A DNA stretch of 48,170 nucleotides from the NCBI GenBank assembly GCA_002439705.1, contig DJPE01000014.1:321-48490 (forward strand). Direction: 5' to 3'. The stretch's first letter is position 1; every line of letters starts with the position of its first letter. The notes beneath the pieces were generated by a model. The model ran no database searches. It worked only from the letters and a program-made list of their open reading frames with translations, and was not told where the DNA came from. The position numbers and the translations under genes are program-made. The DNA is from Christensenella sp. UBA6420 (GTDB lineage Bacteria; Bacillota; Clostridia; Christensenellales; DTU072). Shown in pieces: positions 8,579 to 28,402 of this stretch.

Positions 8579-9002
8579 AAGCTAACCTCCAAGCGTTTTT
8601 ATGTGAAAGCAAATCGTAAGTTCCCGTTTCTACGTCCTTATCCGCTCTCTTTTTGTAAACTTCCGAAACGGGTTCTATTACCATAGACGCCACGGCGCCG
8701 ACGAGCGATATCCCGCTTATCCAAGTCAATTCGTCCGCAAGATATCTCATAACGATAGAAATAATAAACACGACGAGAGACACCGACAGAATAATATTCT
8801 TCTTTGCAAAATCAAGCACTTTATCCTTGAACGCTATGAGCAGGAAAAAAATTATTATGTACCCGAAAAACGAAAGCGACGTACCGGCAGACTTGATATA
8901 GTTTCCTTTTTGCGTGGCAAACAAAACGAGAAGCGGAATCGCATAGACTACGAATGAGAGAACTTTATAGAACCAATATCTCGCTTTATTCGTTGCCAAC
9001 AT
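8559..9002 (-). CDS. Phage 4-TM membrane protein (holin-like by position only)
   Basis: 147 aa with four hydrophobic helices and a charged C-terminal tail. Overlaps both neighbours (17 nt and 20 nt), suggesting translational coupling. Confidence 0.55.
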   Translation of the reverse strand: MLATNKARYWFYKVLSFVVYAIPLLVLFATQKGNYIKSAGTSLSFFGYIIIFFLLIAFKDKVLDFAKKNIILSVSLVVFIISIVMRYLADELTWISGISLVGAVASMVIEPVSEVYKKRADKDVETGTYDLLSHKNAWRLAYGRLPV

Positions 9003-9720
9003 TTCCTATTTCCTCCAACTCTCGTTTAACGGTATCTACTTCCGCTACGTCTTTTGCGTTTTTAGCGTTTACTTTTTCTTCAAGTTCTCGTACTTGCTTA
9101 TATAAATTGACCAACACTTCGGCAGTCGGCGTTTTTGCCAACGCTTCCGCCGCACCCGGAGCTTCTTTCCACGCAATAGCCGCGCCTTTCAATAGATTTG
9201 ATAATTGCGCAGATAAGATTTCTTGCGTAGTCTGTAATTTATCGAGAGCAGCCGTATTGTCAACGTAATTATCGCCTACGACTTTCTTTACAACATCCGA
9301 TATGTAGTCTTTTAATTCCGATACCGTTTTTTCATTCAATACTTTTATAAAGTTATCTACGTTAAAGTCTCCGACCATCGCTTCTGCTTTGCTCGTTCTT
9401 TCTTTAAGCGCAGATAAAAACGCCGCGTATTGTTTGGCTTTTACGCCCGACTTAATAGCGGGAATAATACCCACCAATAAACCGAAAACGCCGCCTACCG
9501 CAGATATTATGAGCGGTAATACGTCGTTCTTAAATACTTCCGAGAAACTGTCCTCGGATACGGTATTTTCGGTATTATCGGAAGTAGACTCCGTATCCCC
9601 CGTAGTAGCTTCTTCCGCCGCATATACGGTCGTATGGGTGCCAATGCATAAGCTAACAGCCATTACTAAAAAAGCGCAAATTACGGCGACGTATGCGCCG
9701 ACAAATAGTTTCTTTCTCAT
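8986..9720 (-). CDS. Phage membrane protein: signal/anchor, acidic Thr/Ser/Glu-rich stretch, one TM, long alpha-helical tail (unknown function)
   Basis: 244 aa: MRKKLFVGAYVAVICAFLVMAVSLCIG..., then EEATTGDTESTSDNTENTVSED, then TM VLPLIISAVGGVFGLLVGIIPAI, then a Lys/Glu/Ala-rich helical region. Confidence 0.55.
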   Translation of the reverse strand: MRKKLFVGAYVAVICAFLVMAVSLCIGTHTTVYAAEEATTGDTESTSDNTENTVSEDSFSEVFKNDVLPLIISAVGGVFGLLVGIIPAIKSGVKAKQYAAFLSALKERTSKAEAMVGDFNVDNFIKVLNEKTVSELKDYISDVVKKVVGDNYVDNTAALDKLQTTQEILSAQLSNLLKGAAIAWKEAPGAAEALAKTPTAEVLVNLYKQVRELEEKVNAKNAKDVAEVDTVKRELEEIGNVGNE

Positions 9721-9735
9721 TTTCTTCTTTCTCCT

Positions 9736-10179
9736 TTATAACGTAATTTTGTGTTCATGAATAAGCGGAGCAACCGTTTCTTTCCATTGTTTTAACTCTG
9801 CCACCGTCGCAGTTAGTGACGCTAAATCGTTTAGTATTCCGTCGACAGACGGGTATGCAATAAGAGCGGGAACGCTATCGTTTACAGACCTTATTTCTAT
9901 GGGCGTGCAAACTATTTTTCGTCCGTTTTCCGTTTGTATTTCAAGACATATTATGCCTTTTTTAAGCCGATTCCTTTTTATTGTCGCCTCGCCGTTATTT
10001 ATAGAAAAGGTTCCCAAAAATAATTTTTGAGAAGTCCTAACTATTAAATTTGCATTTTCTTGCATAAATCCGTCGATAACTACGACTATATCTCCGCTTT
10101 CTTCGATATTAAGAAAAGAACCGTCTATTAAGACGGCTCTTCCTGCATGTTCGATATACTTAAATTTTAGTGTATTCAT
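9736..10179 (-). CDS. Hypothetical phage protein downstream of the fibre gene
   Basis: 147-aa ORF, tightly packed in the late operon. I recognise no motif. Confidence 0.5.
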   Translation of the reverse strand: MNTLKFKYIEHAGRAVLIDGSFLNIEESGDIVVVIDGFMQENANLIVRTSQKLFLGTFSINNGEATIKRNRLKKGIICLEIQTENGRKIVCTPIEIRSVNDSVPALIAYPSVDGILNDLASLTATVAELKQWKETVAPLIHEHKITL

Positions 10180-10196
10180 ATTTTTCTCCTTTTGCT

Positions 10197-10391
10197 TTAT
10201 TCATACGAATTTACAGCTTGTACGGATAGTTTTTCTTCGGCGGTCATTTCAACGATTTGTCCATTCTGCATTTTGTGTGTTATTCCGAGAGAATTATATT
10301 GTTCATCGGTCAACACTAAAGTATTAGGGGTCCCTTTGAAACGTTTGCTTTCGCAATATGCGTTATTGCTATAAACGTGTATATATTTCAT
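10197..10391 (-). CDS. Small hypothetical phage protein (position of XkdX-like or fibre-associated small proteins)
   Basis: 64-aa ORF, 10 nt downstream of the fibre gene stop. Assignment is by position only. Confidence 0.4.
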   Translation of the reverse strand: MKYIHVYSNNAYCESKRFKGTPNTLVLTDEQYNSLGITHKMQNGQIVEMTAEEKLSVQAVNSYE

Positions 10392-10401
10392 TTTACGCTC
10401 C

Positions 10402-13400
10402 TTATTCTGTTATTTCAATTTCGTTCCAATATTCTACGGTAATTCGCGGATAACTGCCGTCGGCGACCGCTGTTCTTTCCCCTGTTACGCTGCCGTCCGT
10501 TGCTATCGTATATGTCGTTTGATAGTATGTGTTAATTTTAATAACGTCGGTATCGGGGATATACGTGCAGTTGTACTCGTCGTTCCTCGTTCCCCCTGCT
10601 AATATCGTAGTTTGTGCCATCTGCACGCCGTTAAAATTATTGCTTCCCTGCGAGCCTGATACCGCGGCTACGTTCCAAACATGGGGGATGTAACCTCTGC
10701 CTGCAACAGTTATTCCACTGAAAACGTAAAAGCTTTTTGCAGTGCTGACAATGTTATAGAGTAGCTTTACGGCGGAAATATCTGTATTTCTCAAATCTAT
10801 CGTAGCCGTGTATTTAGCGAGTCCTATAGGTATTTGTTCAAATATTAATTCGTCCGTATCCGGCGCTGTCGATGAAAAATTTAATACGAATTTAATTATA
10901 CCTTCTTCACCTGCCGACGCAAGAAATGTCATATCATAGTCTATATTACCATTCCCGTCGTCACTAAGAACCATTACAGACGTAAGCGTAGCCACTACCA
11001 AACTTGACGTATCATCAGCCATATTGCAAATTACAGGTTGTCCGTTGTTAAAAGCATTTATTGCCGCTTTCGCGTTTACCCCCAAAACTCCACCTTCAGC
11101 TGTGACGGCTAAAACGTATGCTCCGCTTCCACCGCCGCCCGTACCGTCTTTTCCGTTCGTTACGGTAAAATCATACGTTTGTCCATTCGTCAGAGTTATC
11201 GTGTATGTATCCACAAGTCCTTGTGTCGCCGTTTTGACGATGCTGCTTATGCCTACTCCGTCGTCGCCTTTTGCTCCCGTTGCACCCGTCGCACCGGTAT
11301 CGCCCTTATCGCCTTTCGCTCCTGCAGTTCCTGTAATTTCAGTAATAGCGTTTACTTCCGCCGTTACTAAAGTTCCGCTAATTGCGGTTACTGTGAGCGC
11401 ACCAATAAAACTTTGTATATCAGCACTACCGGGTGTCTTAAAAACGCCTATAAAGTTCTCATTTATTGCTGGCGTTCTATTAAAATTCGATAATGATGTT
11501 GTTATCGTACTACCTATTCCTGTGGGCTCGTTACGGTCATATATAAGAAAATGACTTATTGTGAGTGCATCTAACCCATCATCACCTTGAATTCCCTGTA
11601 TGCCTTGTTTGCCTTGCGCTCCCTGCGGTCCCTGTGCACCTTGAGGACCTTGCGGTCCTTGTATCCCTTGCGCGCCTGACAAATCTGTTATGAACTCATA
11701 TTTCGTTTCGCCTTTTACGTAAAGCTGCGCGTTTTCTTCATCTTCCACGTTGCCCGTTGATATCATAACGAATTCGCCTATTAATACGCCGTCAGTTGCA
11801 TATCCTGCATTCATTGCAGATACCGATTCGTAGATTTTCGATATAGCAAAAGGAGCACCCACGTCACCTTGAGGACCTTGAATACCTTGGGGACCTTGTA
11901 TACCCTGTGGACCTTGTTCCCCCTGCGGTCCTTGTATACCTTGCTCTCCTGTCGCACCTTTCTCCCCGGTAATTTTAACAAGAGTGTTTATAGTTGCTTG
12001 TTTCCCTATGGGATTATCTGCATCCCAATTAGACACCGTAAGCCCTACGATATAGCTCGTACTATTATAACGCATTACCGTTGTAAATTCGTCACCTAAG
12101 TAAGGCATACGATTAAAGACTAAGCTGCTTATAACTACCAAATCTCCGACAGCAGGGGCATCTCCTGTACGTGTTAAAAAGCTACTTGTCGTAAGTGCAC
12201 TAAGTCCAGTAGCACCTCTTTCACCTCGTGTTCCCTGCGGTCCCTGAATACCTTGAACTCCTTGTTCTCCTTGCGGACCTCGTATTGACGCTCCGGGTTT
12301 AAAAATCGAATAATCATTTTCAGAAATGCTCGCTACTTGAGCTACATATCCGTCTTGGAACGTCACCATATCGTATTCCGTCAACGTCGTCGAGTCTGGT
12401 TTTAGCTTGCTCTTATCATATTTGTCATTATCTTTGACGTAATTTTCTTCTGCGGTATACCAATCGGTTTTAATCTTCGCCCAATTGTATACCCGAAAAA
12501 CATAATTCTTGACATCAACGTACGAAACTTGCGCCGTGTATCCGTTCCTAAAAGATATCATATCGCCGTCTTTGAGTCTACCTACAGTCCCTGGAGTCAA
12601 CGAACCTATTACGTATTCTGTACTTAATGAATTTGGAACGCAGTCAGTGCTACAAAAGTACCATTTGTACGGTGGAAACATCGTTCCCGTAAAACAAAGC
12701 AACTGTCCGCTAAACGGTTCTTTAACGCCTTCTATAAGCAAAGAACCGTCGGAACCTTTGAATATCGTATCCGCCGTAATCACACATCCACTATGCGCCG
12801 CATTTGTTTCTATCGTATATCTCTCATTAAGCACTTCCGATGTTTCTACCGTATACGTTTTTTCGGAATCGGCAGCCACTTGCGCAAAGAAATCGGCATT
12901 ATATTGTCCCGTTTGCATACTTGAAAAAGCAAGGTCGTATAACCCCGTAGCGTCTTGCATCGAACCTTGTGCTACCCACGAATCTTTAGAGAATGAAATG
13001 ACAGTCATTCCGTTCACCGTTTCAGGTTCTGTTGCGGTAGGAATACGGAACAGAGCAGTAGTGCCGTCAGAATAATACTTAGTAAAGTAAGTATACCCGT
13101 CGTTTGAAGTCTTCGACGTTATGTCTACGAGAACTCTGCGTACGGTCACGTTCTCTACTTTAGAAACTCGCTCATCGAGATTTTGAAGATACGCTTCGTC
13201 TTGCGCTAAATACGCCAATATTAAGTCGTAGACGTCGGTACTCGGGTCGGGCACCATATCTTTCGGAAGTTGAACCGAAGACTCTACGAGAAAATTGAAC
13301 ATATAGCTCGTTTGGTTACGGTTAGGATAAGTCGTGGCGACGATAGAACATTGAACGTTCCCCGCTACGTTCGTTACCGCCGTGGGCAACGTATAAGTCC

Positions 13401-13662
13401 AACAATTTACCCCGTATTCGGCAGGAACAGTCTTCAACAACGTCATCGGAGCGTAGCCTATATTCGTTAACGCTTTCGTTGCCCTTACCGTCGTCGTTCC
13501 CAACGGCGCCAAGTTTCCGTCGGGAAGAATAAAGCCTATCTTCATCGAAGTGTTTGCCGGGAACGGGGAATAAACGTGAATTTCCGAAACGTTGCTACTT
13601 TGATATATTCGTTCGGGTGTAACCACTTTTGCTTCTCCCGTAAGTGAAAGAAAAATATCCAT
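10402..13662 (-). CDS. Tail fibre / receptor-binding protein with four collagen-like (Gly-X-Y) segments
   Basis: 1086 aa. GPQGEQGVQGIQGPQGTRGERGATG; GEKGATGEQGIQGPQGEQGPQGIQGPQGIQGPQGDVG; GAQGIQGPQGPQGAQGPQGAQGKQGIQGIQGDDG; GTAGAKGDKGDTGATGATGAKGDDG. Paralogous globular modules lie between them. Confidence 0.8.
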   Translation of the reverse strand: MDIFLSLTGEAKVVTPERIYQSSNVSEIHVYSPFPANTSMKIGFILPDGNLAPLGTTTVRATKALTNIGYAPMTLLKTVPAEYGVNCWTYTLPTAVTNVAGNVQCSIVATTYPNRNQTSYMFNFLVESSVQLPKDMVPDPSTDVYDLILAYLAQDEAYLQNLDERVSKVENVTVRRVLVDITSKTSNDGYTYFTKYYSDGTTALFRIPTATEPETVNGMTVISFSKDSWVAQGSMQDATGLYDLAFSSMQTGQYNADFFAQVAADSEKTYTVETSEVLNERYTIETNAAHSGCVITADTIFKGSDGSLLIEGVKEPFSGQLLCFTGTMFPPYKWYFCSTDCVPNSLSTEYVIGSLTPGTVGRLKDGDMISFRNGYTAQVSYVDVKNYVFRVYNWAKIKTDWYTAEENYVKDNDKYDKSKLKPDSTTLTEYDMVTFQDGYVAQVASISENDYSIFKPGASIRGPQGEQGVQGIQGPQGTRGERGATGLSALTTSSFLTRTGDAPAVGDLVVISSLVFNRMPYLGDEFTTVMRYNSTSYIVGLTVSNWDADNPIGKQATINTLVKITGEKGATGEQGIQGPQGEQGPQGIQGPQGIQGPQGDVGAPFAISKIYESVSAMNAGYATDGVLIGEFVMISTGNVEDEENAQLYVKGETKYEFITDLSGAQGIQGPQGPQGAQGPQGAQGKQGIQGIQGDDGLDALTISHFLIYDRNEPTGIGSTITTSLSNFNRTPAINENFIGVFKTPGSADIQSFIGALTVTAISGTLVTAEVNAITEITGTAGAKGDKGDTGATGATGAKGDDGVGISSIVKTATQGLVDTYTITLTNGQTYDFTVTNGKDGTGGGGSGAYVLAVTAEGGVLGVNAKAAINAFNNGQPVICNMADDTSSLVVATLTSVMVLSDDGNGNIDYDMTFLASAGEEGIIKFVLNFSSTAPDTDELIFEQIPIGLAKYTATIDLRNTDISAVKLLYNIVSTAKSFYVFSGITVAGRGYIPHVWNVAAVSGSQGSNNFNGVQMAQTTILAGGTRNDEYNCTYIPDTDVIKINTYYQTTYTIATDGSVTGERTAVADGSYPRITVEYWNEIEITE
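11257..12279 (-). repeat. Coding collagen-like triplet repeats (4 blocks) interleaved with duplicated globular modules
   Basis: Blocks at about 12205-12279, 11857-11967, 11575-11676 and 11257-11331. The modules LSALTTSSFLTRTGDAPAVGD...NRMPYLGDEF and LDALTISHFLIYDRNEPTGIG...NRTPAINENF are paralogous. Confidence 0.85.
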
Positions 13663-13720
13663 AAATTTGTCTCCTTTTATGTATTTACGCTCCCGAAAAT
13701 CGAGAGCGTATCGTTTGAAA

Positions 13721-16438
13721 TTAGAAATTAAAATATATAGGCTTTGCCGTTTCGCCTGGTTTAAGCGTAACGTTCTCGCCTAAGTATAATTCTTTCGTAT
13801 CTGCGTCGACCAACGCCCACCCTACGTACGTGTTCGTGGCGCTTTCATTCGTTATGTTTTGTATCGACGAGCCTATGATTGTAAAGCGAGGACTACCGTC
13901 CCAAAAATCGCCGTCTGACTCGTCAAGATTATTCCTTAACCCGTTTAACCTTTTTCGTAAAAAACACAGCTGCATTTTTTTATTCTCCACAGACGTAACG
14001 AGAGCATTCTTAGACCACATCGCGGACCCCATTACTATTGCTCTATCGTCACATTGCCCGTATAATTGAAATGTAAAAGATAACTTTTCCGAACTGTTTT
14101 TATCAACGTGAAGAATATTTTTCCAATTGTGAGCACTTCCTTGATACACGCCCGAAGAAATAAACGCTTCGTCGTGCGTACCGTAGTAGTACTTGTCGTC
14201 AATCATAGGGAGCGTATCGCATATACCACCGCTTTGGTCTCCGTATCCAGCTTCGTATAGTTCTATCGTTCCGTCTGCATTTTTAGAATATAACTTATCT
14301 GCAATTGCATATTCGAGAGCGTAAAATTCGCCGAAAACGCTACCGTACGGAGTTGCTTTACGTTGCTTATACTCAACGGACGGAATAACGTCGGAACGGT
14401 CGCCTACGGAATAATTGTCTTCAAGCGTACAATTAAAGTACAACGAATTACCAAAGCCGTGCTTGGTCACGCCTTTTGCGTAACATTTTCCCAACTGTTC
14501 TCCCGTATTGGAAAGGCAACGGAAAACTAACGTAGCAGCGGTATCACGGTAAGCAGTTCTCGTCGGGTCAAAAGTATCCATAAACCGATATCTCAGCCAA
14601 TCACGTATCTCTCCGTTTATTTTTAACGGATTATTACTATGCGATATGAGTATTTTGTACGGAACGATTATTTTTCTATCTATACTTTGTCGTTCCGATA
14701 CGTCGAATACTCTATAATGACTCGATAACCCGAAATATTCCGACAACTTATTAAAATCGGGAGTAACGTAAATATCGGCTATTACGTAGTTGCGTCCGTA
14801 ACGCTTCGTAACGTTGAAAATATATCCGCCGTCGAAATAATTCCCAGGTTTAGGAAGGTCTTTCGGATTATCAAAACGTATTTTGTAAATCGTTACGTCG
14901 TTACCGAGTCTTGCTATTTTGCCTTTAAGATTTTCACCGTAAGCGTTCGCTTCAACCGAACTTGCCGACTGTTGGTTGTATAATACGTTATCGTTTGGAA
15001 AACCGACGTACGGTTTATATTGACGAACCCTAACGTTATCGTAAGGTATATAAGTTACTCTAAACGCAAGATTTTCATAGCTGCCCGCTTCGCCAAAGTT
15101 TTTTCCTGCGTGTTTAACGATATTCTCTATGCTCGGTTTCTTAAAAGAGTTAATTAGGTTAAGAAGTGAAACGCTCGTCGTATTCAACCCGGTAATCTCT
15201 CGACTCCCCTGTTTCCAACATAACGCGTAAGCTACGCTGTTAGGATACCCCACGTTATCGGCAGTCATTAAGCAATCGTATTCAGTTTGCTCGTAACAAT
15301 ATTTCGTTATATCTCCGATTACGCTCGATGTGCTTCCTTCTGTATAAGCCATTTCAAGTTTAACGAGTCTATATATCGGTCTATCGAGTTTTATAATAGC
15401 GGTATCCGATTTTATCTCTATACCCGACGTACACCGAGTAGTTTTGTATACGTTCGGAAGCGGGTCGACGAGACTCCCCGCTATGGTATCCTGCGTATCG
15501 ATGATATTTTCCGCATATGAGTCGAGCGCGCCGCAATAATCGTTTATTTTAACTACATTGCGGCATCCCATTACCACGGCAGTAGCAGGCAACGTATACT
15601 CTTCGTCCGTTCCTAAAAGGTCGAAAGTTACTTTTGTAAGATTGTCGTTGCCGTCGCTGACTAAACGAGGGATTCCGTGTATATAGTGACCGACGGTCAA
15701 CAACGCTTCAAAAAGCGTCATCCGCGGAAGAAAGAACTCCGGAGCGGGAACTTTTTTAAACTTCTCTGCAATCGCATCGTCGAGATAATATTTGGGTTCA
15801 TCTTTTACTTTGCGCGTAATTCCAGTAGACAAAATACGGTTAATAACGTCCGTTATTGACGGTATAGGTTTAGAAACGTAAAACAAATTTTGCGCATCTA
15901 TATGGAATGATATCTTTAAAGTGGATACTTCGTTTTCCTCGCCAACAGATACCGTTGCTGTACAGGTGTATAAAATTTTGAATTTATCCGCTTTCCCAAA
16001 TACATATTGAGCTATTACATCTCCTGTCTTTTTGTCTACCGGAAATTCGTTAGGAAGCAACACAAACATAGGTGTTTCTTCGCTGTCAAGAATATCTAAG
16101 CGATATTCATATTTATCCGGCTTCGTTCCCAAAGAACGTTTTGCTTCTATAAATTTCAAATCAAACTTTTCTTCTATTCCCTGCGGAGACACATATAAAG
16201 TCTCAACTGCTGATTTATCAAATTCCCAATAATTTATGTCCTGCGTAGTCGTTGTCGTGCCAACGGTTATAGTTGCCCATGCTTCATATTCGACATATTC
16301 TGCATAAGGATTAATTGCCATCGAATTTCTATGGGTAAAAGATATGCTGTCGCACGGTTCGCGTTCTAATAACTTAGTCGGTTCTAACAGCTGTATTCTT
16401 TCTCTTACCTTTTGATTTTTTCGTAAAAAATCTAACAT
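13721..16438 (-). CDS. Large virion (tail/baseplate-like) structural protein, family not recognised
   Basis: 905-aa ORF directly upstream of the fibre gene. Assignment is by position and size only. Confidence 0.5.
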   Translation of the reverse strand: MLDFLRKNQKVRERIQLLEPTKLLEREPCDSISFTHRNSMAINPYAEYVEYEAWATITVGTTTTTQDINYWEFDKSAVETLYVSPQGIEEKFDLKFIEAKRSLGTKPDKYEYRLDILDSEETPMFVLLPNEFPVDKKTGDVIAQYVFGKADKFKILYTCTATVSVGEENEVSTLKISFHIDAQNLFYVSKPIPSITDVINRILSTGITRKVKDEPKYYLDDAIAEKFKKVPAPEFFLPRMTLFEALLTVGHYIHGIPRLVSDGNDNLTKVTFDLLGTDEEYTLPATAVVMGCRNVVKINDYCGALDSYAENIIDTQDTIAGSLVDPLPNVYKTTRCTSGIEIKSDTAIIKLDRPIYRLVKLEMAYTEGSTSSVIGDITKYCYEQTEYDCLMTADNVGYPNSVAYALCWKQGSREITGLNTTSVSLLNLINSFKKPSIENIVKHAGKNFGEAGSYENLAFRVTYIPYDNVRVRQYKPYVGFPNDNVLYNQQSASSVEANAYGENLKGKIARLGNDVTIYKIRFDNPKDLPKPGNYFDGGYIFNVTKRYGRNYVIADIYVTPDFNKLSEYFGLSSHYRVFDVSERQSIDRKIIVPYKILISHSNNPLKINGEIRDWLRYRFMDTFDPTRTAYRDTAATLVFRCLSNTGEQLGKCYAKGVTKHGFGNSLYFNCTLEDNYSVGDRSDVIPSVEYKQRKATPYGSVFGEFYALEYAIADKLYSKNADGTIELYEAGYGDQSGGICDTLPMIDDKYYYGTHDEAFISSGVYQGSAHNWKNILHVDKNSSEKLSFTFQLYGQCDDRAIVMGSAMWSKNALVTSVENKKMQLCFLRKRLNGLRNNLDESDGDFWDGSPRFTIIGSSIQNITNESATNTYVGWALVDADTKELYLGENVTLKPGETAKPIYFNF

Positions 16439-16467
16439 CTCTCCTTACTCCTTAAAATTTTGTATAT

Positions 16468-16493
16468 AAAAAAAGCACTCTTTCGAGTGCCTT
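16468..16493 (-). terminator. Rho-independent terminator closing cassette A
   Basis: Minus strand reads GCACTC-GAAA-GAGTGC followed by TTTTTTT. It is nearly the same hairpin as at 27982-28009. Confidence 0.7.
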
Positions 16494-16515
16494 ATTCTAT
16501 TTTTCGTAAGTTCCT

Positions 16516-16788
16516 TTATTCCTCGTCCAAACCGTAGTTGTCTAATTCAGCGGCAAAATACATTATCAATTCAAATTTATCATGAGCCAAGAAGCGCGTT
16601 TCTAAATCACATTCGTTACTGTACAAATATCTTATGTTGATATCATTGTCTTTGATAAATTGAGTGATTATCGGTATCCTTTCAGGATGACGTAATGCCG
16701 AAGTTCTTACCATATCAAGATTATCGTCCGGGTCGTTTATTGCATCAATAAGGTCTATAAAGTCTTGAATTTCTTTTTCAGTTATCAT
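16516..16788 (-). CDS. Conserved 90-aa acidic protein, copy A (unknown function)
   Basis: GGAGAGAG RBS then MITEKEIQDFIDLIDAINDPDDNLDMVRTSALRHPERIPIITQFIKDNDINIRYLYSNECDLETRFLAHDKFELIMYFAAELDNYGLDEE. Paralogue of 28403-28675. I moved the start to Met21 of the track ORF because the RBS and nucleotide conservation begin there. Confidence 0.7.
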   Translation of the reverse strand: MITEKEIQDFIDLIDAINDPDDNLDMVRTSALRHPERIPIITQFIKDNDINIRYLYSNECDLETRFLAHDKFELIMYFAAELDNYGLDEE

Positions 16789-16808
16789 TTTTCTCTCTCC
16801 ATAATATT
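16516..16808 (-). repeat. 293-bp direct repeat, copy A (partner at 28403-28695)
   Basis: Aligned by eye. Identical runs of about 37, 35 and 47 nt, for example gtcttgaatttctttttcagttatcatttttctctctccataatatt. Confidence 0.85.
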
Positions 16809-16919
16809 GTGTATTGAAAACCATGTTCGCTATCCAATAATTTAACAAAATATTTCTATTCTGTACATATTTTTAATGTGACCCTGAATATCAAGAGTTT
16901 CTTCACATCTCATAATATA

Positions 16920-17129
16920 TCACTCTGGACGGTCTTTTATCAATAATGCAAATGATAAAATTTGAGACTGAGTAAGTTCTTCATGATTATAAAGAAATGA
17001 CGCCATTGCTATTAATTTTTCATATGTTTGCAACATTAAGCAAACCCCCATAACAGCATTGTCGCTTACGCCTTTATTTTTTAGGAGCTTTATTACTTCT
17101 TTCCTTTTGCCATCAATATCAAAATTCAT
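16920..17129 (-). CDS. Small hypothetical protein (69 aa), unique to cassette A
   Basis: The ORF overlaps the upstream gene by 11 nt. AT-rich, CpG-poor composition like the rest of the cassette. Confidence 0.5.
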   Translation of the reverse strand: MNFDIDGKRKEVIKLLKNKGVSDNAVMGVCLMLQTYEKLIAMASFLYNHEELTQSQILSFALLIKDRPE

Positions 17130-17568
17130 TGCGCAATACCTCCTGCACTTTCATAATTATTTCTTCATTCCCTTCTATCGATATTTTTGCAAGCGGAACT
17201 ATTGAACCATATCCCAAATGATTATATAACACAAACGACTTATTGGTAAAGTCCCCATCTATACATTGTTTATGCCCAAGTCTTTTTATTGCTTGTTGCG
17301 AGATAACTGCATATTCGTATTTACTTAATACTATTTGAGTTTCTATCTCTTTTACTGGATTTATTGTGCGAGAAACAATTCTATCAACATACTCGTAAAA
17401 GTCTCTATTGACTTTTGAAATAAATTTAATACTAGCAATTTCATTTTGCCGTAAAGCCGCTTTATTTCCTATCTGCACAAGTTTTTCGACTTGCAATAAA
17501 CTATTTCTCTTGTCGGTAAACTTCCCGTCACCGTCCCTCGGATGGTCTTCTTCTCTGAACGTAGTCAT
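17119..17568 (-). CDS. HPRDGDGKF-motif protein A (149 aa, unknown function)
   Basis: MTTFREEDHPRDGDGKFTDK..., sharing only this N-terminal motif with 28665-29057. The start overlaps the upstream stop as TAATG. Confidence 0.65.
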   Translation of the reverse strand: MTTFREEDHPRDGDGKFTDKRNSLLQVEKLVQIGNKAALRQNEIASIKFISKVNRDFYEYVDRIVSRTINPVKEIETQIVLSKYEYAVISQQAIKRLGHKQCIDGDFTNKSFVLYNHLGYGSIVPLAKISIEGNEEIIMKVQEVLRNEF

Positions 17569-17876
17569 TATAACACACTCCTTCCCTTAAAGCAAGTAAG
17601 CCACGTAGTATCTCTATCACCCGTAACGTAATCGAGTTTCTCTAAAAGCTCGTCGTTATCTTCATCCCTTATTTCGATACGCACGTGCGTAAAAGGCGGT
17701 ATAAATCCTATTCCTTCCGACTCATCCGATATATCCAAAGTACGCGCTTGCATATCGAGAGACGACGTATCGAGCTCTTCGTCTAACGGATTCTCGAAAT
17801 AAATATCCCTGTGGAAATTCTCTATCTCTTTCCAAACTCCGTTTATCTTTGCTTTGACCGAATATTTAAGCGTCAT
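17568..17876 (-). CDS. Hypothetical virion/tail-region protein (102 aa)
   Basis: ORF in the late operon. Acidic. No motif recognised. Confidence 0.45.
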   Translation of the reverse strand: MTLKYSVKAKINGVWKEIENFHRDIYFENPLDEELDTSSLDMQARTLDISDESEGIGFIPPFTHVRIEIRDEDNDELLEKLDYVTGDRDTTWLTCFKGRSVL

Positions 17877-17877
17877 A

Positions 17878-18336
17878 TTAAAAATCTCCCAATGCTCTGC
17901 TTCTGTTAAACGAAGGTCCTGCTCTCAAAACGGATTCGCCGATTTCGAGCCGTTCAACCGTTCTCGCAACTTTGTTCTTTTCGACTTCGGCAATCATCGC
18001 TATGCCCTGTCCCGCAAGGTTAAGCGCGCCCGCTATCGGGTCTATCATAAACGCAATACCTGCGGATACCGCGCTTTGCGCAATGCCGCTAATAGCCTGC
18101 GCTTTCGCTTGCTGTCTGTCGTTACCCGTTTTTACCGACATAAGCGATAATCCCGTATCTGCGACGCCTCTGAAAAATGCCGTAGCTTCCCACGCTTTCG
18201 CGACGGTTTTAATCGGGTTGTTGCCTTGTTCCTTTACCTTGCTCGTCGCTTTCGCTTCTTTTCTTTCTCCGTCTCCGCTCTCTTTATCCGAGTCCGTAGT
18301 AGGAACTCTTATAATAAGTTTGTAAGTATCTGCCAT
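17878..18336 (-). CDS. Hypothetical virion protein with a Gly/Ala-rich hydrophobic core (152 aa)
   Basis: AQAISGIAQSAVSAGIAFMIDPIAGALNLAGQGIAMIAEVEK resembles membrane-active or tape-measure-like segments, but the protein is far too short for a siphovirus tape measure. Confidence 0.4.
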   Translation of the reverse strand: MADTYKLIIRVPTTDSDKESGDGERKEAKATSKVKEQGNNPIKTVAKAWEATAFFRGVADTGLSLMSVKTGNDRQQAKAQAISGIAQSAVSAGIAFMIDPIAGALNLAGQGIAMIAEVEKNKVARTVERLEIGESVLRAGPSFNRSRALGDF

Positions 18337-18344
18337 AATTTCTC

Positions 18345-19157
18345 CTAATAAAAAAGCGTTGCCGTCACGGTAATTCTCGGTATTTTTTTCGGTTCGAACG
18401 ATATATTGATATCTTTCGTAGTTATCGTCGTTTCGAACGGATATTCCTTCGTATAAGCTACGCCGTCGTAATATTGAAACGCGTAAGTTTTATCAAGGCT
18501 ACCGCTAAGCACGTCTTTGACTATCTCTACGGTCTTTTCCGTATTTCTATACGGAATATCGAAAAACAAAGCAAGAGACTGCATCGTCTTCGTGTTTTTC
18601 GCGTAATCGCCGTTCTTGACGTTCCCTGCTTCCAATTCGGCGGCTACGCCGATAGAACCCGACAAATACGTCATTTCTTCTCCGTCTATTTTAATTACGC
18701 ACGAATTCGAAATAACCCCGTCTTTTATCAACGTATAATAGCAAAAGAATTGTATTTCCACCGAACTACCCGCGCCGGGTCTTATAGATAAATCGGATAC
18801 CGACGGAAAGTCGAAATTGCTTACGACGGCGTAGTCGTCGAGAGTAAACGCGTTTCCCTTGTTTTCGGTGATATACTCTATCACCGTAGAATAAACTTCA
18901 TCTATGTACGATTTAGGCACGGTGAAAGTTAAAAGCGCCATAACGTCGTAGTTTTCAAAATCCTTTATCGCCGTCATTCCCGTAGGTTGAGCTACGAGCG
19001 TACCCGATATAATCGGAAATTCCTTTTCTCGTATATTGTCGCGTAAAGGTTGATAGGCGTATTTGCCGACTTGCACTCCTATATTGAACTGAACTTTATC
19101 GGAAAGTTCGTTTAACTTTTCGGTAATCATAGCCGATAATCTCGCATAATCTATCAT
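18345..19157 (-). CDS. Virion structural protein (tail/neck region, 270 aa)
   Basis: Assignment by position, downstream of the head-completion genes. No motif recognised. Confidence 0.45.
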   Translation of the reverse strand: MIDYARLSAMITEKLNELSDKVQFNIGVQVGKYAYQPLRDNIREKEFPIISGTLVAQPTGMTAIKDFENYDVMALLTFTVPKSYIDEVYSTVIEYITENKGNAFTLDDYAVVSNFDFPSVSDLSIRPGAGSSVEIQFFCYYTLIKDGVISNSCVIKIDGEEMTYLSGSIGVAAELEAGNVKNGDYAKNTKTMQSLALFFDIPYRNTEKTVEIVKDVLSGSLDKTYAFQYYDGVAYTKEYPFETTITTKDINISFEPKKIPRITVTATLFY

Positions 19158-20519: not shown

Positions 20520-22070
20520 TTATTGTTCAGCCGTAAGCGTTTTGGTTACGCTGTAAGTAGCAAGAGCGGTGTTGTCTTCGGTTATTTCGACGGTAGCCTT
20601 TTCCATTCCGGGAGCTTCGACGGTTACGGTAGCCGCTACGCCTCTCGGCAAAGTGAAATCGTAAGTTCCGTCGCCGTTATTACCGAAGCTGTAACGGGCA
20701 AAACCGTCGCCGACGATAGTGAGCGTTGCGTTCTTCACGGGAGTCGGCGTTTGAGAACCGGTGTTAAGCGTAAGTTTGACGTCGGTCACGAGAGACTCGG
20801 ACGCTATGCCGATAGCCTGAATGGTTCCAGCTGCGGGAATAGCCGCCTGATAACTCTGTATGTACGCTTCAAGGTCTCTCGGCGATACGGTACCGCTGTA
20901 AGTTTCAATCGGGTTGACGAAGTCTGCGCCGTCGTTTGCGGATTCCACGAGAAGAGCTATCGCGCTGTCTCGGATAACCTGAGCGCCCCACTGCCAATCG
21001 TTACGCACGATATATCCCATAGAAGTGGTCGGGGCTTTATCTACTTCGACGTCGGTAGCGCTTCTTCCGAAATACACTCCGAGTCCGTTCGCCACGTAAC
21101 CTACTACTTTGTTGAATGCGGAAAGGTTAGCTACGGGTACGCCGTCGAGAGCCGCCGCCATGGTCCAATATTCGTCGGGAACTACTTTTATCATAATTCC
21201 GCCGTATTCGCCACGGATACAACCGCCGAGATAACGAGTATTATCGTCGGAGAACTTACCGCGGAGAAGTATCTTTTGACCGATATCGCTGTTTATAATC
21301 GCGCCGTTATCTACGGTCATAAGTTTATTAAAGACCGAATATTTAAGCACGAAAACGCTCTTTTCCACGGGATAGCTCACCACTCCGTCCACGTAACCGT
21401 TGGGAACGTTGGAAAGTTTGGTTGCAAGTGCGTTCATAACGTTTTGCAAATAGCCTTTGTCGGTATTCGTTTTATTGTAGAATACGACGTTGGAATTGCT
21501 CGTTCTCTTTGCTCTCGCAAGTCCCGCGCCGATATGGTTGCCCATAATATCCGCGTCGGTAAGCATAGCGACGACCTGCGGTATGTTCTGCGTGTACTGC
21601 GCAAGCAAGTCGAGCTGACTTCCTATCATACGCATCTGACTGCGCGACACCTGACCGGCTTCGTCGTAAATCTGACGGAAGAAAATATCCACCGCGTCGG
21701 TCTGCATGCCGTGGGGCAAATTGTTGTTGAAAGGCGAGTCGTTCCCGGGCGTACCTTCAAGTACGTGTCCGCCGAGATTTACGCTCAACGTACGCATATT
21801 ACGCGGAGCGGGAATAAGTCTCGGAATACGAACGGCTACCGCGCCGTCTTCCGTTGCGTTCATGCTCGTTACTCCGAGTCCGTCGGTAAAAATCTTCTGG
21901 TCGAGATAAAGTAACTGCCATTGACTCGCCAAACGTCTGTTCACGAGCACGTTACCTACCGCCGGGTACTGTCCCGAAGACGGAGTAACGTTGAAAGCAG
22001 GCTTAACGTTCGCCGCCGCCTGCAAGTAAAGTTGGGTATCGGAGATACCGTTGGAAATAATTGCTGTCAT
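20520..22070 (-). CDS. Major capsid protein with a C-terminal Ig-like decoration domain (putative)
   Basis: 516 aa, directly after the scaffold gene, with an alanine/glycine-rich abundant-protein composition. The C-terminal roughly 90 aa (TLTIVGDGFARYSF...VTVEAPGMEKATVEI) looks like a beta-sandwich add-on. Confidence 0.65.
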   Translation of the reverse strand: MTAIISNGISDTQLYLQAAANVKPAFNVTPSSGQYPAVGNVLVNRRLASQWQLLYLDQKIFTDGLGVTSMNATEDGAVAVRIPRLIPAPRNMRTLSVNLGGHVLEGTPGNDSPFNNNLPHGMQTDAVDIFFRQIYDEAGQVSRSQMRMIGSQLDLLAQYTQNIPQVVAMLTDADIMGNHIGAGLARAKRTSNSNVVFYNKTNTDKGYLQNVMNALATKLSNVPNGYVDGVVSYPVEKSVFVLKYSVFNKLMTVDNGAIINSDIGQKILLRGKFSDDNTRYLGGCIRGEYGGIMIKVVPDEYWTMAAALDGVPVANLSAFNKVVGYVANGLGVYFGRSATDVEVDKAPTTSMGYIVRNDWQWGAQVIRDSAIALLVESANDGADFVNPIETYSGTVSPRDLEAYIQSYQAAIPAAGTIQAIGIASESLVTDVKLTLNTGSQTPTPVKNATLTIVGDGFARYSFGNNGDGTYDFTLPRGVAATVTVEAPGMEKATVEITEDNTALATYSVTKTLTAEQ

Positions 22071-22093: not shown

Positions 22094-22531
22094 TTAGCCT
22101 TTGATTTGTCTTAAAATAGCCGTAGCTTCCGCCGGCGTCATTTTTTCCGTTGCGGTTTCGCTTTCGAACACTCCGCCGCTGACTCCGTATTTTTCTTTCG
22201 CCTTTTCGAGTGCTTCTTTATCTACGCTCGGTTGTCCTTTGGAAATGAACTCCATAATTTGTCCGAGCATCGTTTCCATTTTGTCAAGACGCGCATCGAC
22301 GGCGGCTTTTTCTGCACCTTTGCTTTCGTCAATACGGTCTTTCGCCGGCTGAGAGTCTTCTTTCCCTTCGTCCTTAAACTGTGCCGCTACGCTCTCGTCG
22401 GTACGAGCGCGTTCGGTTTGAGAATTTTCGCCTTTTACAGCTTCATCCTCGTTTGCCTTTTTAATGTCCTTTTCGTCTACCGTTGCCATTTGTTTATCCT
22501 CCTTTGGCGTTTTTTTGAAAAATTTGAACAT
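22094..22531 (-). CDS. Scaffolding protein
   Basis: Highly charged Glu/Lys/Asp/Ala-rich helical protein between the MuF region and the capsid gene. I moved the start to MFKFFKK (GGAGG RBS at 22536-22540) because the track extension would cross a terminator hairpin. Confidence 0.65.
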   Translation of the reverse strand: MFKFFKKTPKEDKQMATVDEKDIKKANEDEAVKGENSQTERARTDESVAAQFKDEGKEDSQPAKDRIDESKGAEKAAVDARLDKMETMLGQIMEFISKGQPSVDKEALEKAKEKYGVSGGVFESETATEKMTPAEATAILRQIKG

Positions 22532-22553
22532 ATAACCTCCGTTATTTATGCAT

Positions 22554-22577
22554 AAAAAAAGGACGGCATCCCGTCCT
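22554..22577 (-). terminator. Rho-independent terminator-like hairpin just upstream of the scaffold gene
   Basis: Minus strand reads AGGACGG-GATG-CCGTCCT followed by TTTTTTT. Confidence 0.65.
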
Positions 22578-22604
22578 ATCTTTATCATCGTTTATCCTAT
22601 AAAT

Positions 22605-22685: not shown

Positions 22686-22976
22686 TCATTGCATCCACTC
22701 GGTTTTCCATAATGGCTGAATAACTTTTACGCTTTCTATCTGGTCTAAATAGACCGTAAACCCAAACGGCGTTGAGTTATCACAAGTTACTCCGAACGCC
22801 GCCACGTTATAATCGTTATCGTCTGCATCTTCACATTCGTCGACGTAGCCTCGGATTACTTTATATCCATAAATATCCTTGCCTTCTTTCAAAACGATTT
22901 CGACAAATTCAAGAAAGAAGTCATTAAAGTTTTCTTCGGTCACGTTCGTATAAATTTCGTTTATCTTTACTGCCAT
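22686..22976 (-). CDS. Small acidic protein downstream of MuF (candidate immunity protein)
   Basis: 96 aa with an acidic patch DECEDADDNDY. It sits immediately 3' of the MuF gene carrying a C-terminal extension and is followed by a terminator. Confidence 0.5.
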   Translation of the reverse strand: MAVKINEIYTNVTEENFNDFFLEFVEIVLKEGKDIYGYKVIRGYVDECEDADDNDYNVAAFGVTCDNSTPFGFTVYLDQIESVKVIQPLWKTEWMQ

Positions 22977-23008: not shown

Positions 23009-24463
23009 TCATAAATACGGCACTATGTGAAGTCCTTTTTTAGAGTAATGTATCTTTGCCTTTTGGGTCGGTATCTTTTTCCCGTTTCTATATACAAAAC
23101 CTATTCGCTTGTCCGTCTCTATTATTTCTCGTATACCGTTTTGTTGTTCTGCTTGCACCCATCCACTACCGGCATATCTATCGATAATATTTTGAACTTC
23201 GCTTATACTTATCGTCACGATGCTTTTCCCTTGCATATACTCATTGCTTCCCGGTATATGCTTATTTTGTTTGCCGACGTGGACTTTTAGTGGATATTCT
23301 CCATTCTTTATTTTCGTTCGCAGAGTTTCTTTCGTGCGACTAAGAACGTTTATATGTTTATCAATTTCTTTCTTGCAACTATCGTTGATAAGTTCTTCAC
23401 CGTCGAATTCTTTGCATCTCCACGGATAAAAAGCTACTTTGTTTGCATTGCTATAATCGACGTATTTTTTGTAAAGCTCTTTGGCTTTCTTCCGTTGCTT
23501 TGCGGCTTCAATCGGGTCTATTTCTTTCAGACATATACTTTTCTTTATCGCTCGACGAGTTTCGCGCTCCAAATATCTTTGCGTTTTCTCGATATTGCGT
23601 TCTTTCTCTATCGCTTCTGCCGATATATGTATCGGTCCGTTCCCTTTACGATACGGAATAAGAAAATGCCGACAGTTAAAGCCGCTTATACAGCCGTTTT
23701 TATAAGTCTTTCCCGATTTGGTCGTATAATATATATCCGTAGCGTCGGAAAGCGGTCTGAATTCTTTTCCGTCGATTTTTCCGCTCCTGCCGCTTATGCT
23801 GTAAAGTTTTCCTTGCCACGGCTCGCAACGCTCCGAACAATTTCCGTGCGTAGATATCCAAACGAGGTCTTCTCCTTGCTCCGTCAACGCTCTAAGCTCT
23901 TCTTTTTGTCGCTCACTGCGTTCGCGCATCTCCGCTACGTTACGCAAACTTACGTTACTCGAATAGCTGTCCTTTGCTTCGGAATCTGCAAGCTCTCTGA
24001 ACGTTTTTTCTACTCTCTTTGCGTACGTTTCAGTGTATTCGTTTAACGGTTGAGCCGTTTCCCAATATCGCCCGACGGGTTCGACGATTTGTTGCAACTG
24101 CGGATTCGCTAACGTTATTTTCTCGGCGGCTTTTCTCTTTTGCTCGTCCGTTGCTTTCGGATTTCGTATCGTCACGACGTAAGGCAAAAGCCCTGCGTGT
24201 AGTCCAAAAAGTTCCGTCTTCGCTTTTCGATATTGTATCGTTGCGTAATAATAAAGCGATTTTTTAATTCTTTCTCGAAACTCTTCGTCTTCTATTGCGG
24301 GAGTCCATAGGTTTATCGCTCGCGATATTTGAGCGTTAACTTCAAGCCAAGCGCGATTGTATAAAACGGCGCTCTTAATGATTGCCCTTATCGCCGCTTG
24401 TGCTTTTTCCAAATCTAACGTCTGCGGAGAAAGTTCTTCGCGTTTAGTCGGTTTATTTATCAT
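23009..24463 (-). CDS. SPP1 gp7 / Mu F-like head morphogenesis protein with an extra C-terminal module of about 100 aa
   Basis: MuF-type core VWISTHGNCSERCEPWQGKLYS...GCISGFNCRHFLIPY. ATGA overlap with the portal gene. The C-terminal module is LKVHVGKQNKHIPGSNEY...IHYSKKGLHIVPYL. Confidence 0.8.
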   Translation of the reverse strand: MINKPTKREELSPQTLDLEKAQAAIRAIIKSAVLYNRAWLEVNAQISRAINLWTPAIEDEEFRERIKKSLYYYATIQYRKAKTELFGLHAGLLPYVVTIRNPKATDEQKRKAAEKITLANPQLQQIVEPVGRYWETAQPLNEYTETYAKRVEKTFRELADSEAKDSYSSNVSLRNVAEMRERSERQKEELRALTEQGEDLVWISTHGNCSERCEPWQGKLYSISGRSGKIDGKEFRPLSDATDIYYTTKSGKTYKNGCISGFNCRHFLIPYRKGNGPIHISAEAIEKERNIEKTQRYLERETRRAIKKSICLKEIDPIEAAKQRKKAKELYKKYVDYSNANKVAFYPWRCKEFDGEELINDSCKKEIDKHINVLSRTKETLRTKIKNGEYPLKVHVGKQNKHIPGSNEYMQGKSIVTISISEVQNIIDRYAGSGWVQAEQQNGIREIIETDKRIGFVYRNGKKIPTQKAKIHYSKKGLHIVPYL

Positions 24464-26004
24464 ACGAAATCACCGCCCATACCGTCGAATACTTGACTTT
24501 GCCTTGCGTCAGACTCTTTATCTATCTTGCTTTGATACTCGCGCGTTTCTTTCAAAGACAAATTGTTGATTTTTTGTATGAACGTTTCCTGCGGTATCGC
24601 GCCTGCTTCGTAGTTCGCTCGTAGGTTTGCGTCACGCTGTATCTTATTCCCGATATCGTCGGAAAGCTGTATAGACGCTGTACCGTTGAACCCTTCGAAG
24701 CGTAAAACAGCTTCCAACGCTTCGTCTATAACGGGCAAATACATTTGATGAGCGCTTCTTATCGTCGCTCTCGTAAGGTTCTCTTCCGCCGTAACTTCCG
24801 TCGCCGTACGCGCTGAATTATCCGCTAAAAACGGGAATACGGAACTCGGTGAAAAGCCGCAATGCGCTACGGCTTGCCGCATGTATACTTCAAGTATCTC
24901 TCGATATTGAGTGCTTCGTATATCGAACTGAACCGAAGTCGGCGGGAATTCTTTATCCCTTTCCGTAGATATGTAAACGAGTTCGTCGCTATCGTCTTCT
25001 TCGCCCAATGCCCTTTCTTGCGCCGCCGTTACGTTTATTCCGTTCCCCGCAAGAACGTCTCGGATTTCTCTTAAAAACCGTTTCGGAACGAGTATCTTTC
25101 CCGTCCCGTTAAGTACGTCTATTATACTTCCCGCAAAAACAGTATCGATACTCCAAAGTATATCTTCCGCCGCGTACAAAAGCGGGTCGCCCATATACAA
25201 CCCAGGTACGACGGAATTAGTTTCCGTACGACATAATATCCAAACTCCGAGTCCGTCGCGTTTGTCGAACGGCAAAGACATAGGCTTATTCAGCCGTATC
25301 CCCATTTTATTTACGACCTGCTGCATAGTCCGGGATAAATCTTTATACGGTATTCCGTCTCCGTCAAGCGTAGGCAGAACGTCTGCGCCTGCCGTTCCGC
25401 TCTTGACGTGCGCCTTATAAACTACGAACGGTACGCCTTGTTTCATATACCGATGCTCTACGAGCCAATATTGCGTAGCCGTGTTGCCCGCCTGTTGCGA
25501 AGCAAGAACGGTAAGCATAAATATCGCGTCTATGACTTCTCCCGTATCCGTAACGGTAGCGTAATAACGGTCTACTCTATGTGCCGTAAGATTAGTCCAA
25601 CCTCTTGCGTCTACGTTGAGCTTTATAGCGGCGGTCCCGGCAGATTCCGCGTAATCTATGGCTTGCGCCAAAAATTTATTAAAGCGACTCTTCTTTACCC
25701 ACACGTTATCTAAAAACTCACACGCCATATCGTCGCCGTTGAAAATTACGCGTTCGCCTTTTATAAGTTTGACTGCCGTACGCTTGATTGCGTAGCCTAT
25801 GTTGGAAGAAATGCTATTCTGCGTCGTTCCGTCCTTTATCCCGCTCGCATAAGCTAAATCTTGTCTAACGACAGTATTCATATAGTTTATAAAATACGGC
25901 GATAATCCGCTGTAATATTGACTCATATTTACCCAAAACGGTGACGGTGAAGTCGATTTCGTACTTAGGTAATCTTGTAAATATTTCGGTATCTGAAAGC
26001 TCAT
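24460..26004 (-). CDS. Portal protein (SPP1 gp6-like by position and size)
   Basis: 514 aa, between terL and the MuF gene. Confidence 0.75.
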   Translation of the reverse strand: MSFQIPKYLQDYLSTKSTSPSPFWVNMSQYYSGLSPYFINYMNTVVRQDLAYASGIKDGTTQNSISSNIGYAIKRTAVKLIKGERVIFNGDDMACEFLDNVWVKKSRFNKFLAQAIDYAESAGTAAIKLNVDARGWTNLTAHRVDRYYATVTDTGEVIDAIFMLTVLASQQAGNTATQYWLVEHRYMKQGVPFVVYKAHVKSGTAGADVLPTLDGDGIPYKDLSRTMQQVVNKMGIRLNKPMSLPFDKRDGLGVWILCRTETNSVVPGLYMGDPLLYAAEDILWSIDTVFAGSIIDVLNGTGKILVPKRFLREIRDVLAGNGINVTAAQERALGEEDDSDELVYISTERDKEFPPTSVQFDIRSTQYREILEVYMRQAVAHCGFSPSSVFPFLADNSARTATEVTAEENLTRATIRSAHQMYLPVIDEALEAVLRFEGFNGTASIQLSDDIGNKIQRDANLRANYEAGAIPQETFIQKINNLSLKETREYQSKIDKESDARQSQVFDGMGGDFV

Positions 26005-27981: not shown

Positions 27982-28009
27982 AAAAGAAAAGCACCCTTTC
28001 GGGTGCCTT
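27982..28009 (-). terminator. Rho-independent terminator closing cassette B
   Basis: Minus strand reads GCACCC-GAAA-GGGTGC followed by TTTTCTTTTG. Same design as 16468-16493. Confidence 0.7.
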
Positions 28010-28365: not shown

Positions 28366-28402
28366 TTTTTAGTGCTTGCTTATAGGCATTCCGAACCGTA
28401 AT

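Follow-up and report, generated by a model that had tools for sequence, protein, structure and literature searches.

Cassette A is a three-gene insert at positions 16468-17568 (minus strand) of a 48,170-nucleotide (nt) stretch of DNA from Christensenella sp. UBA6420, referred to here as the window, and lies within the late structural operon of a prophage. Its first gene, A1, begins with a 17-residue peptide, the tag, which in other phages joins portal and MuF proteins to effector and toxin domains. Between close relatives of this phage only the body of A1 behind the tag and the second gene, A2, are exchanged, one breakpoint lying where the tag ends and the other a short way upstream of the third gene, A3. 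On balance we lean towards a reading in which cassette A is an accessory cargo cassette, A1 being an effector that would be loaded into the virion and injected, A2 its partner and A3 an accessory gene; we infer from sequence comparison that A1 is packaged, ejected and active, and likewise what A2 and A3 do. The parts of the cassette are listed below, with structure predictions from AlphaFold2 (AF2).

17119-17568, minus strand: A1, open reading frame (ORF) of 149 amino acids (aa), N-terminus MTTFREEDHPRDGDGKFTDK
17509-17559, minus strand: the tag, A1 residues 4-20 (FREEDHPRDGDGKFTDK), scoring 39-40 bits with a hidden Markov model (HMM) of the motif
17338-17508, minus strand: A1 residues 21-77, variable spacer, predicted by AF2 as a long low-confidence helix
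17119-17337, minus strand: A1 residues 78-149 and stop codon, conserved C-terminal domain of approximately 70 aa, predicted as alpha, three beta strands, alpha
16920-17129, minus strand: A2, ORF of 69 aa overlapping A1 by 11 nt, with an AGGAGG ribosome-binding site
16789-16919, minus strand: spacer of 131 nt between A2 and A3
16516-16788, minus strand: A3, ORF of 90 aa with a GGAGAG ribosome-binding site
16848-17507, minus strand: exchanged block in comparison with L123/L124, two close relatives, comprising the body of A1, some of the spacer and A2, delimited with blastn
16465-16493, minus strand: intrinsic terminator with a GAAA loop and T run, hairpin at 16493-16472

The tag belongs to a motif, [FW]xEx[DE]HPRDxxGKF, that is usually followed by a glycine-rich linker, and the A1 copy contains HPRDGDGKF. 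Scanning a degenerate DNA pattern for [DE]HPRDxxGKF over public viral and bacterial-genome collections gave at least 120 loci in the former and at least 119 in the latter. Two positions that the pattern left free are also conserved: counting from [DE], F or W stands at -4 in 113/113 and E at -2 in 107/113 of the unique viral matches listed, against 106/121 and 105/121 of the genome matches listed; the A1 copy agrees with both, having F at -4 and E at -2. Among the viral matches listed a Gly/Ser-rich stretch follows the motif. Every synonymous codon is in use among the matches listed, so it is the peptide and not the DNA that is under selection. In six frames of the window the motif HMM finds exactly two copies at approximately 40 bits each, one in A1 and one in B1, the first gene of a second cassette described below; the next match scores 3.6 bits. 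Searching phage records with the 24-aa tag by tblastn returned 11 matches, of which the useful ones were Burkholderia phage portals, this method being too insensitive for the purpose.

To establish what the motif joins, the viral motif-bearing frames were split at the motif and the two sides were scanned separately against Pfam. Among the viral matches listed, 37 of the 81 unique upstream segments are portals, drawn from three Pfam families; MuF accounts for two and DUF2213 for four, and the remainder are effector domains of multi-module proteins. The 113 downstream segments contain no Pfam portal (0/113); they include topoisomerase IB (9), NUDIX (7), Zeta toxin (6) and LPD3 (5), together with ADP-ribosyltransferases, ATLF-type zincins, RelA_SpoT, PBECR1/3, InPase, LPD13, GNAT and the XkdF protease. 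The matches listed from bacterial genomes extend this range to phage lysozyme, M23 peptidase and a papain-fold glutamine deamidase; markers of conjugation (relaxase, ArdC and type IV secretion domains) are absent from them. A named isolate with such a fusion is Burkholderia phage vB_E436, where the annotated 759-aa portal has the motif at approximately residue 545, followed by an extra domain of approximately 190 aa. Judged by these matches, the joined domains are the repertoire catalogued for polyvalent proteins by Iyer et al. 2017 (PMC5512222) and again in a later survey (PMC9503650), in both of which they are predicted to be packaged in the head and injected.

The tag is also common on free-standing genes, as in A1. 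Relatives of the phage carry, inside the structural module, an N-terminally tagged Zeta toxin followed by an ORF of 88-93 aa (L251, L252) and a tagged PBECR3 RNase with a tagged LPD3-like protein (L127), while in L249 a tagged 254-aa gene stands directly after MuF and precedes a 77-aa ORF; the latter was considered as an A2-like gene and rejected on comparison. A first-pass annotation, made from the letters of the window, had described A1 as a conserved N-terminal tag with a variable body, and the occurrence of the same tag both at portal and MuF junctions and at the head of stand-alone Zeta-toxin, PBECR3 and LPD3 genes bears this description out.

The same distribution could be read differently, with the motif as a proteolytic processing or inter-module junction site, cut by the prohead protease or by a zincin peptidase, and not as a loading signal. 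On stand-alone genes such as A1 it would then be a relic, or would be cut off after use. In phage T4 the prohead protease removes the capsid-targeting leader by cleaving at LxE/IxE. A junction site fits the placement of the motif right after the portal domain, where a fused effector would need release, and ahead of each module in multi-module proteins, including three times before zincin domains in L069. It is also consistent with the motif preceding XkdF and DUF2213 domains, of which DUF2213 presumably neighbours portal genes as a protease or scaffold. Peptidase processing of polyvalent proteins has itself been proposed, by Iyer et al. (PMC5512222). Against it stands the strong conservation of the motif three residues from the N-terminus of stand-alone proteins (A1, B1 and those of L127, L249 and L251); cleavage there would release nothing, which counts against a role in cleavage only. 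The motif lies within 30 aa of the open-frame start in 61/121 genome matches listed. Moreover, the same 14-residue motif accompanies unrelated portal families (Phage_portal_3, lambda-type, Mu-type and SPP1-type neighbours), whose proteases probably differ, and the portal-to-tape-measure region of phage Mu (15-25 kb) contains no copy. A junction site is the leading alternative for the tag; we consider a pure one unlikely, while noting that loading and processing could coexist in one peptide, by analogy with the T4 leader.

The clearest case of a motif before every module of a polyvalent protein is a 1576-aa protein of L069 (1693-6420, minus strand, IMG/VR contig 3300015371_002966), which comprises three repeats of the motif with a zincin/ATLF-like peptidase and also contains an intein-like region.

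The second copy of the motif in the window belongs to cassette B, which has the same design as cassette A.

27984-29057, minus strand: cassette B, just upstream of the small terminase gene (27451-27942)
28665-29057, minus strand: B1, tag protein of 130 aa with HPRDGDGKF
28403-28675, minus strand: paralogue of A3, with 88% protein identity to it
28162-28365, minus strand: small extra ORF, with a likelier start at the ATG at 28316
28009-27988, minus strand: terminator with a GAAA hairpin, the same as that of cassette A

At the DNA level the two cassettes are alike in the tag (40 nt, 17547-17508 in cassette A, 95% identical) and in the A3 gene (306 nt, 85.6% identical). The terminator stem of cassette B has a compensatory change from CTC/GAG to CCC/GGG that keeps the pairing. 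The A1 and B1 bodies were compared as possible distant homologues and this was rejected at any detectable level, hhalign aligning the first 40 or so residues alone. Ahead of cassette B there is a further hairpin with a T run at approximately 29120-29085, and a C-5 cytosine DNA methyltransferase gene (29700-31319, minus strand) lies two genes upstream of the cassette.

The boundaries of the exchanged block in cassette A come from blastn comparison with L123/L124, which are 96% identical to the window across the 152-aa gene (17878-18336) and the 102-aa gene (17568-17876) and on into the tag. Identity ends at 17508, the end of the tag, and restarts at 85.5% from 16847, just upstream of A3, from where it covers A3, the terminator and the beginning of the 905-aa gene. 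Between these points the relatives carry a 262-nt body like that of B1 where the window has 660 nt encoding the A1 body and A2.

Relatives were reached through the 905-aa protein, which has 212 homologues in the protein database; scans of viral and genome contigs for related loci with the 905-aa protein alone found nothing. The first-pass annotation had presented the cassette as an insert, and the survey of related phages that it called for has now shown tagged genes in the structural module and a slot of varying content. L249/L250 have nothing in the slot, whose content in L125, L251 and L252 is a reverse-strand gene. In L127 the slot is filled by the tagged LPD3-like gene, then a RelA_SpoT gene with a SocA_Panacea gene. 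This last pair, with a RelA_SpoT protein similar to small alarmone synthetases, lies at 6512-7899 of L127, upstream of the tail gene, while L252-L254 carry a 109-aa gene and an HTH-Panacea gene downstream of the tail gene (11837-12890 of L252). The toxin candidates of both toxin-antitoxin-like pairs are without the tag.

This variability bears on whether A1, A2 and A3 are ordinary assembly or structural accessories, for example tail chaperones or a neck or decoration protein, that are foreign in looks only. The three genes do sit within the structural operon and show translational coupling, and the neighbouring 152-aa and 102-aa genes are equally unannotated. Such a role is hard to reconcile with close relatives that have 96%-identical flanks and an unrelated body at this point, with more distant relatives in which the slot is empty or filled by unrelated genes, and with the recurrence of the whole design away from the tail genes, upstream of terminase. 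Nor did profile and structure searches detect homology to ordinary structural or assembly proteins; the first-pass annotation had said that such homology, if confident, would count against its view. We think this explanation highly improbable.

The details of the anatomy agree for the most part with the first-pass annotation. All three minus-strand ORFs are present. TAATG couples A1 to the 102-aa gene upstream, base 17568 being common to the TAA of that gene and the ATG of A1, and GGAAGGAG precedes the A1 start. The cassette is closed by its own GAAA-tetraloop terminator, whose stem of nine pairs (AAGGCACTC-GAAA-GAGTGCTTT) is followed by a T run. Approximately 33 nt separate the terminator from the ATG (16438) of the 905-aa gene, so this gene has to be reached by read-through. 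For A3 the ORF lister gave a TTG start at 16848 and the gene caller an ATG at 16824; the ATG at 16788 is favoured by its GGAGAG site and by the same start being kept in the paralogue and in relatives. Two descriptions hold in part. Of the proposed small acidic partners A3 is acidic, with an isoelectric point (pI) of 4.2, but A2 is near neutral (pI 6.6); the pI of A1 is 7.8. The insert does sit in the structural operon, but its placing amid tail genes is a label drawn from position, because neither the 102-aa nor the 905-aa neighbour has a match to any described family in Pfam or PHROGs.

The contrast in composition that it noted is also seen, with a GC content of 0.331 in cassette A versus 0.40-0.44 in the flanks and a CpG observed/expected ratio of 1.22 versus 1.9. 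Only 1.3% of equal-sized segments across the 48 kb match its AT-richness, and the segment of lowest GC overlaps it. Other lows are cassette B and an island at 36400-37700 (GC 0.31-0.33), which is close to a coding-strand switch.

Deviant composition, a terminator and a slot that is empty or differently filled in relatives are features that cassette A has in common with the morons of lambdoid phages, additional genes that sit among conserved late genes and carry a promoter and a terminator of their own. Morons of this kind are autonomous, whereas the first gene of cassette A is translationally coupled to the operon, and while the terminator of cassette A is clear, its promoter-like sites are at the level of shuffled sequence. 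The sigma-70-like hexamers TTGATA and TATATT, 18 nt apart and with TG, occur at 16943-16914 in the A2-A3 region and are weak evidence of a promoter.

Cassette A might be a moron expressed from the prophage, a toxin-antitoxin, defence or superinfection-exclusion system that acts in the lysogen and is never packaged, with the tag serving some intracellular role. The phage is temperate, the cassette is AT-rich, terminator-closed and in a variable slot, and relatives have the RelA_SpoT and SocA_Panacea pair (L127) and the 109-aa and HTH-Panacea pair (L252-L254) by the tail gene. A1 and A2 also resemble type II toxin-antitoxin pairs in being small and coupled; they overlap by 11 nt, yet neither matches Pfam, NCBIfam or PADLOC, and no toxin-antitoxin family is recognised. 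Expression in the lysogen is further disfavoured by the coupling of A1 to a late structural gene, with any promoter of its own indistinguishable from chance, and by the other contexts of the tag, which are portal and MuF fusions and virion-type lysins. We judge this reading to be distinctly unlikely.

The proteins themselves give few clues from known families. None of A1, A2, A3, B1, B2 and B3 has a credible match in Pfam, PHROGs, NCBIfam or PADLOC, which agrees with the statement of the first-pass annotation that no function had been described for A1-A3, and A1 has no Pfam match with E <1. A word-indexed search with A1 retrieved only A1 itself and a relative of B1. Exhaustive HMMER searching of 1.84 billion representatives identified five small homologues (P0124, P0126, P0129, P0132 and P0135, E 2.7e-14 to 3.7e-4), of which four bear the tag or a slightly degraded copy. 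Four giant cadherin/Ig/laminin proteins (P0123, P0125, P0131 and P0138) were rejected as homologues, since their matches consist of many short stretches of repeat protein and were taken as compositional. The approximately 70-aa C-terminal domain common to A1 and its homologues reads LSKxEYAxI, then DFTxxNFVxYxHxGxGxIxP, then IxGNEExI. AF2 models it as a helix, three strands and a helix with a predicted local distance difference test (pLDDT) of 83-90; residues 20-77 have a pLDDT <50, and the spacer is not conserved among the homologues.

Comparing the A1 model with the PDB by Foldseek gave nothing significant, the best E being 0.22 to Roadblock and ribosomal alpha/beta folds, and two unnamed small viral proteins were found in the viral model library BFVD (E 4.5e-5 and 1.6e-3). 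When hhalign was used to compare A1 with a tagged portal C-terminus the tag alone aligned, and the same was the case for the PBECR3 protein, leading us to reject the C-terminal domain as a PBECR RNase. Invariant residues of the A1 family are M1, the R in the HPR of the tag and others in the C-terminal domain; since almost all of the latter are hydrophobic or structural, the domain is more likely to be a binding or inhibitor module than an enzyme.

A2 is 39% identical (E 6e-10) to a 67-aa ORF behind the A1 homologue P0126, in the same slot of L129. In L128 another A1 homologue lies upstream of terminase and is followed by a 76-aa ORF. A1 and A2 are therefore inherited together, as a conserved pair. 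A3 behaves differently. Among 5.8 billion proteins it is confined to this phage lineage; it is 79% identical to the copy in relatives, and its four-helix AF2 model (pLDDT 78) has no significant fold match in the PDB by Foldseek (best E 0.54). As A3 is constant while the bodies are unrelated, it is not a cognate immunity protein of the variable body; most likely it is a lineage-specific accessory gene. The first-pass annotation had suggested immunity or chaperone partners; for A3 a cognate immunity role is not borne out, and for A2, which goes with the A1 body, either role would fit.

Three other known systems offer comparisons. With the polyvalent proteins, as characterised by Iyer et al. 2017 (PMC5512222) and in PMC9503650, cassette A has in common that the A1 gene stands among phage virion genes and that its tag is the peptide found between portal or MuF and catalogued effector domains, covering LPD3, LPD13, PBECR1/3, ART-PolyVal, InPase, NUDIX and zincins among the loci listed. 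Polyvalent proteins have 2-15 effector domains per polypeptide; A1 consists of tag, spacer and one domain of approximately 70 aa, and matches none of the repertoire domains (LPD, PBECR, ART-PolyVal, zincin). A1 is also free-standing and not fused to MuF or portal, so that its link to this group is indirect, through the common tag.

In temperate phages the MuF polymorphic toxins described by Jamet et al. 2017 (PMC5576092) likewise pair an unchanging delivery portion with a C-terminal body that varies, and a small gene follows downstream. The window itself holds a genuine MuF toxin 5.4 kb from cassette A (23009-24463, minus strand; Phage_min_cap2 with Ntox50, Pfam E 1e-23), followed by an acidic 96-aa gene (22686-22976, minus strand; pI 4.05) that has no family match. 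The N-terminal MuF domain is absent from A1, whose constant part is a 17-residue peptide. Where MuF toxins have a cognate downstream immunity gene, in cassette A it is A2 that is co-inherited with the variable body, no toxin family is recognised, and A3, the acidic gene downstream, stays the same when the body changes. As defining features of each group are missing, we do not assign the cassette to either the polyvalent or the MuF-toxin family.

The internal proteins of phage T4 (IPI*, Alt; PMC9503650 and general knowledge) are small, mutually unrelated proteins that carry a short leader at the N-terminus and are packaged in the head for injection, and by analogy we propose that the tag acts like this capsid-targeting leader. 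The T4 leader and the HPRD tag have no sequence similarity, and the HPRD tag is also found internally, after portal domains.

In the cargo reading that we favour, A1 would be produced in the late phase of infection, TAATG coupling its translation to that of the structural gene upstream, and the 17-residue tag would direct it into the assembling head near the portal. Many other phages would achieve the same result by fusing tag and effector to the C-terminus of the portal or MuF protein, with this lineage keeping its payloads as separate genes. A1 would then be ejected with the DNA, and its C-terminal domain would act on the newly infected cell. A2, coupled to A1 and co-inherited with its body, would be its cognate partner, either an immunity-like neutraliser or a chaperone. 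A3, a constant acidic gene ending at the terminator, behaves like a moron and may serve as a generic partner of the tag or be expressed in the lysogen. Tag and A3 would be constant arms between which bodies are exchanged by recombination. The internal terminators, in cassette A and after the acidic gene linked to Ntox50, would fit moron logic, in which genes expressed from the prophage are insulated from the late genes. Under that logic the late genes are reached only by terminator-resistant late transcription. The reading gains support from the presence in the same phage of the MuF-Ntox50 toxin with its acidic downstream gene and terminators.

Several points weigh against it. The C-terminal domain of A1 has neither a known fold nor a catalytic signature, so that it is called an effector by association. 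A docking peptide would be redundant in portal fusions, and the 2-3 copies of the motif per polypeptide in L069, L031, L038 and L117 are explained at least as well by an inter-module linker or a processing site as by a signal for targeting. A search of PDB chain sequences with the tag profile found no solved structure with the motif, and with the tag and A1 family profiles gave matches at chance level only (Cyclin-Y, E 1; OmpR-type winged helix, E 0.59). The 76-aa ORF of L128 is weakly A2-like (hhalign probability 23%). A3 is constant despite the differing bodies, for which our model gives no explanation, and promoter-like sites in the A2-A3 region are not enriched (21 versus 19.5 in shuffled sequences).

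The phage is temperate and integrated in the chromosome of an uncultured Christensenellales bacterium. Bacterial genes flank it on both sides, namely TopA, DprA and a ComM-like Mg-chelatase ATPase (458-5168) and the DNA polymerase III alpha subunit (43421-47728), and it encodes a large serine recombinase (38633-40051, plus strand). TopA is 96% identical to those of metagenome-assembled genomes of uncultured Christensenella/Clostridiales. The late operon runs from terminase (26013-27470) through portal (24460-26004), MuF-Ntox50, the acidic 96-aa gene and scaffold and capsid genes (scaffold candidate 22094-22588, major capsid protein 20520-22070) to a collagen-repeat fibre, with two hairpin terminators (22629-22610 and 22577-22560) after the acidic 96-aa gene, amid the head genes. 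A blastn search with 15500-18500 found no match in 50,697 phage records.

Other observations concern the genes around the cassette. Within 7706-19157 (minus strand), the interval from the 270-aa gene (18345-19157) to the genes for the 905-aa and 1086-aa proteins has no long tape-measure-like gene. Collagen triple-helix repeats are present in the 1086-aa protein. The unannotated 152-aa protein, which is itself kept in relatives, has a hydrophobic stretch rich in Ala, Gly and Ile.

Head-packaged, injected effectors are already known, as are polymorphic phage toxins with partner genes. As far as the literature and libraries show, the junction or leader peptide and its use on free-standing small genes are new, as are the cassette framed by tag and A3 and the A1 and B1 body families. 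The motif is not described in the literature found on motif or cargo tag, and word searches of the main text of Iyer et al. 2017 (PMC5512222) and of the text of Jamet et al. 2017 (PMC5576092) returned no mention of the junction peptide.

A broader hypothesis, which we put forward tentatively and with some doubt, is that [FW]xEx[DE]HPRDxxGKF is a hitherto undescribed, portable loading signal used by tailed phages in general, a short linear motif that would be enough to bring any protein into the capsid at the portal for injection, across unrelated portal families, with tag and A3 framing a cassette for the exchange of payloads and A1 and B1 being new payload families. Phages are known to inject proteins together with their DNA; how these are chosen for packaging has, to our knowledge, been worked out in a handful of models, such as the T4 targeting leader and direct fusions to MuF or portal. 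If the hypothesis is true, injected payloads such as toxins and counter-defence proteins would be predictable from sequence alone, A1 and B1, which have no other annotation, would be singled out as candidate payloads, and there would be a simple experimental handle on capsid loading. The exact boundaries of the swap show how payloads pass between related prophages of gut Christensenellales.

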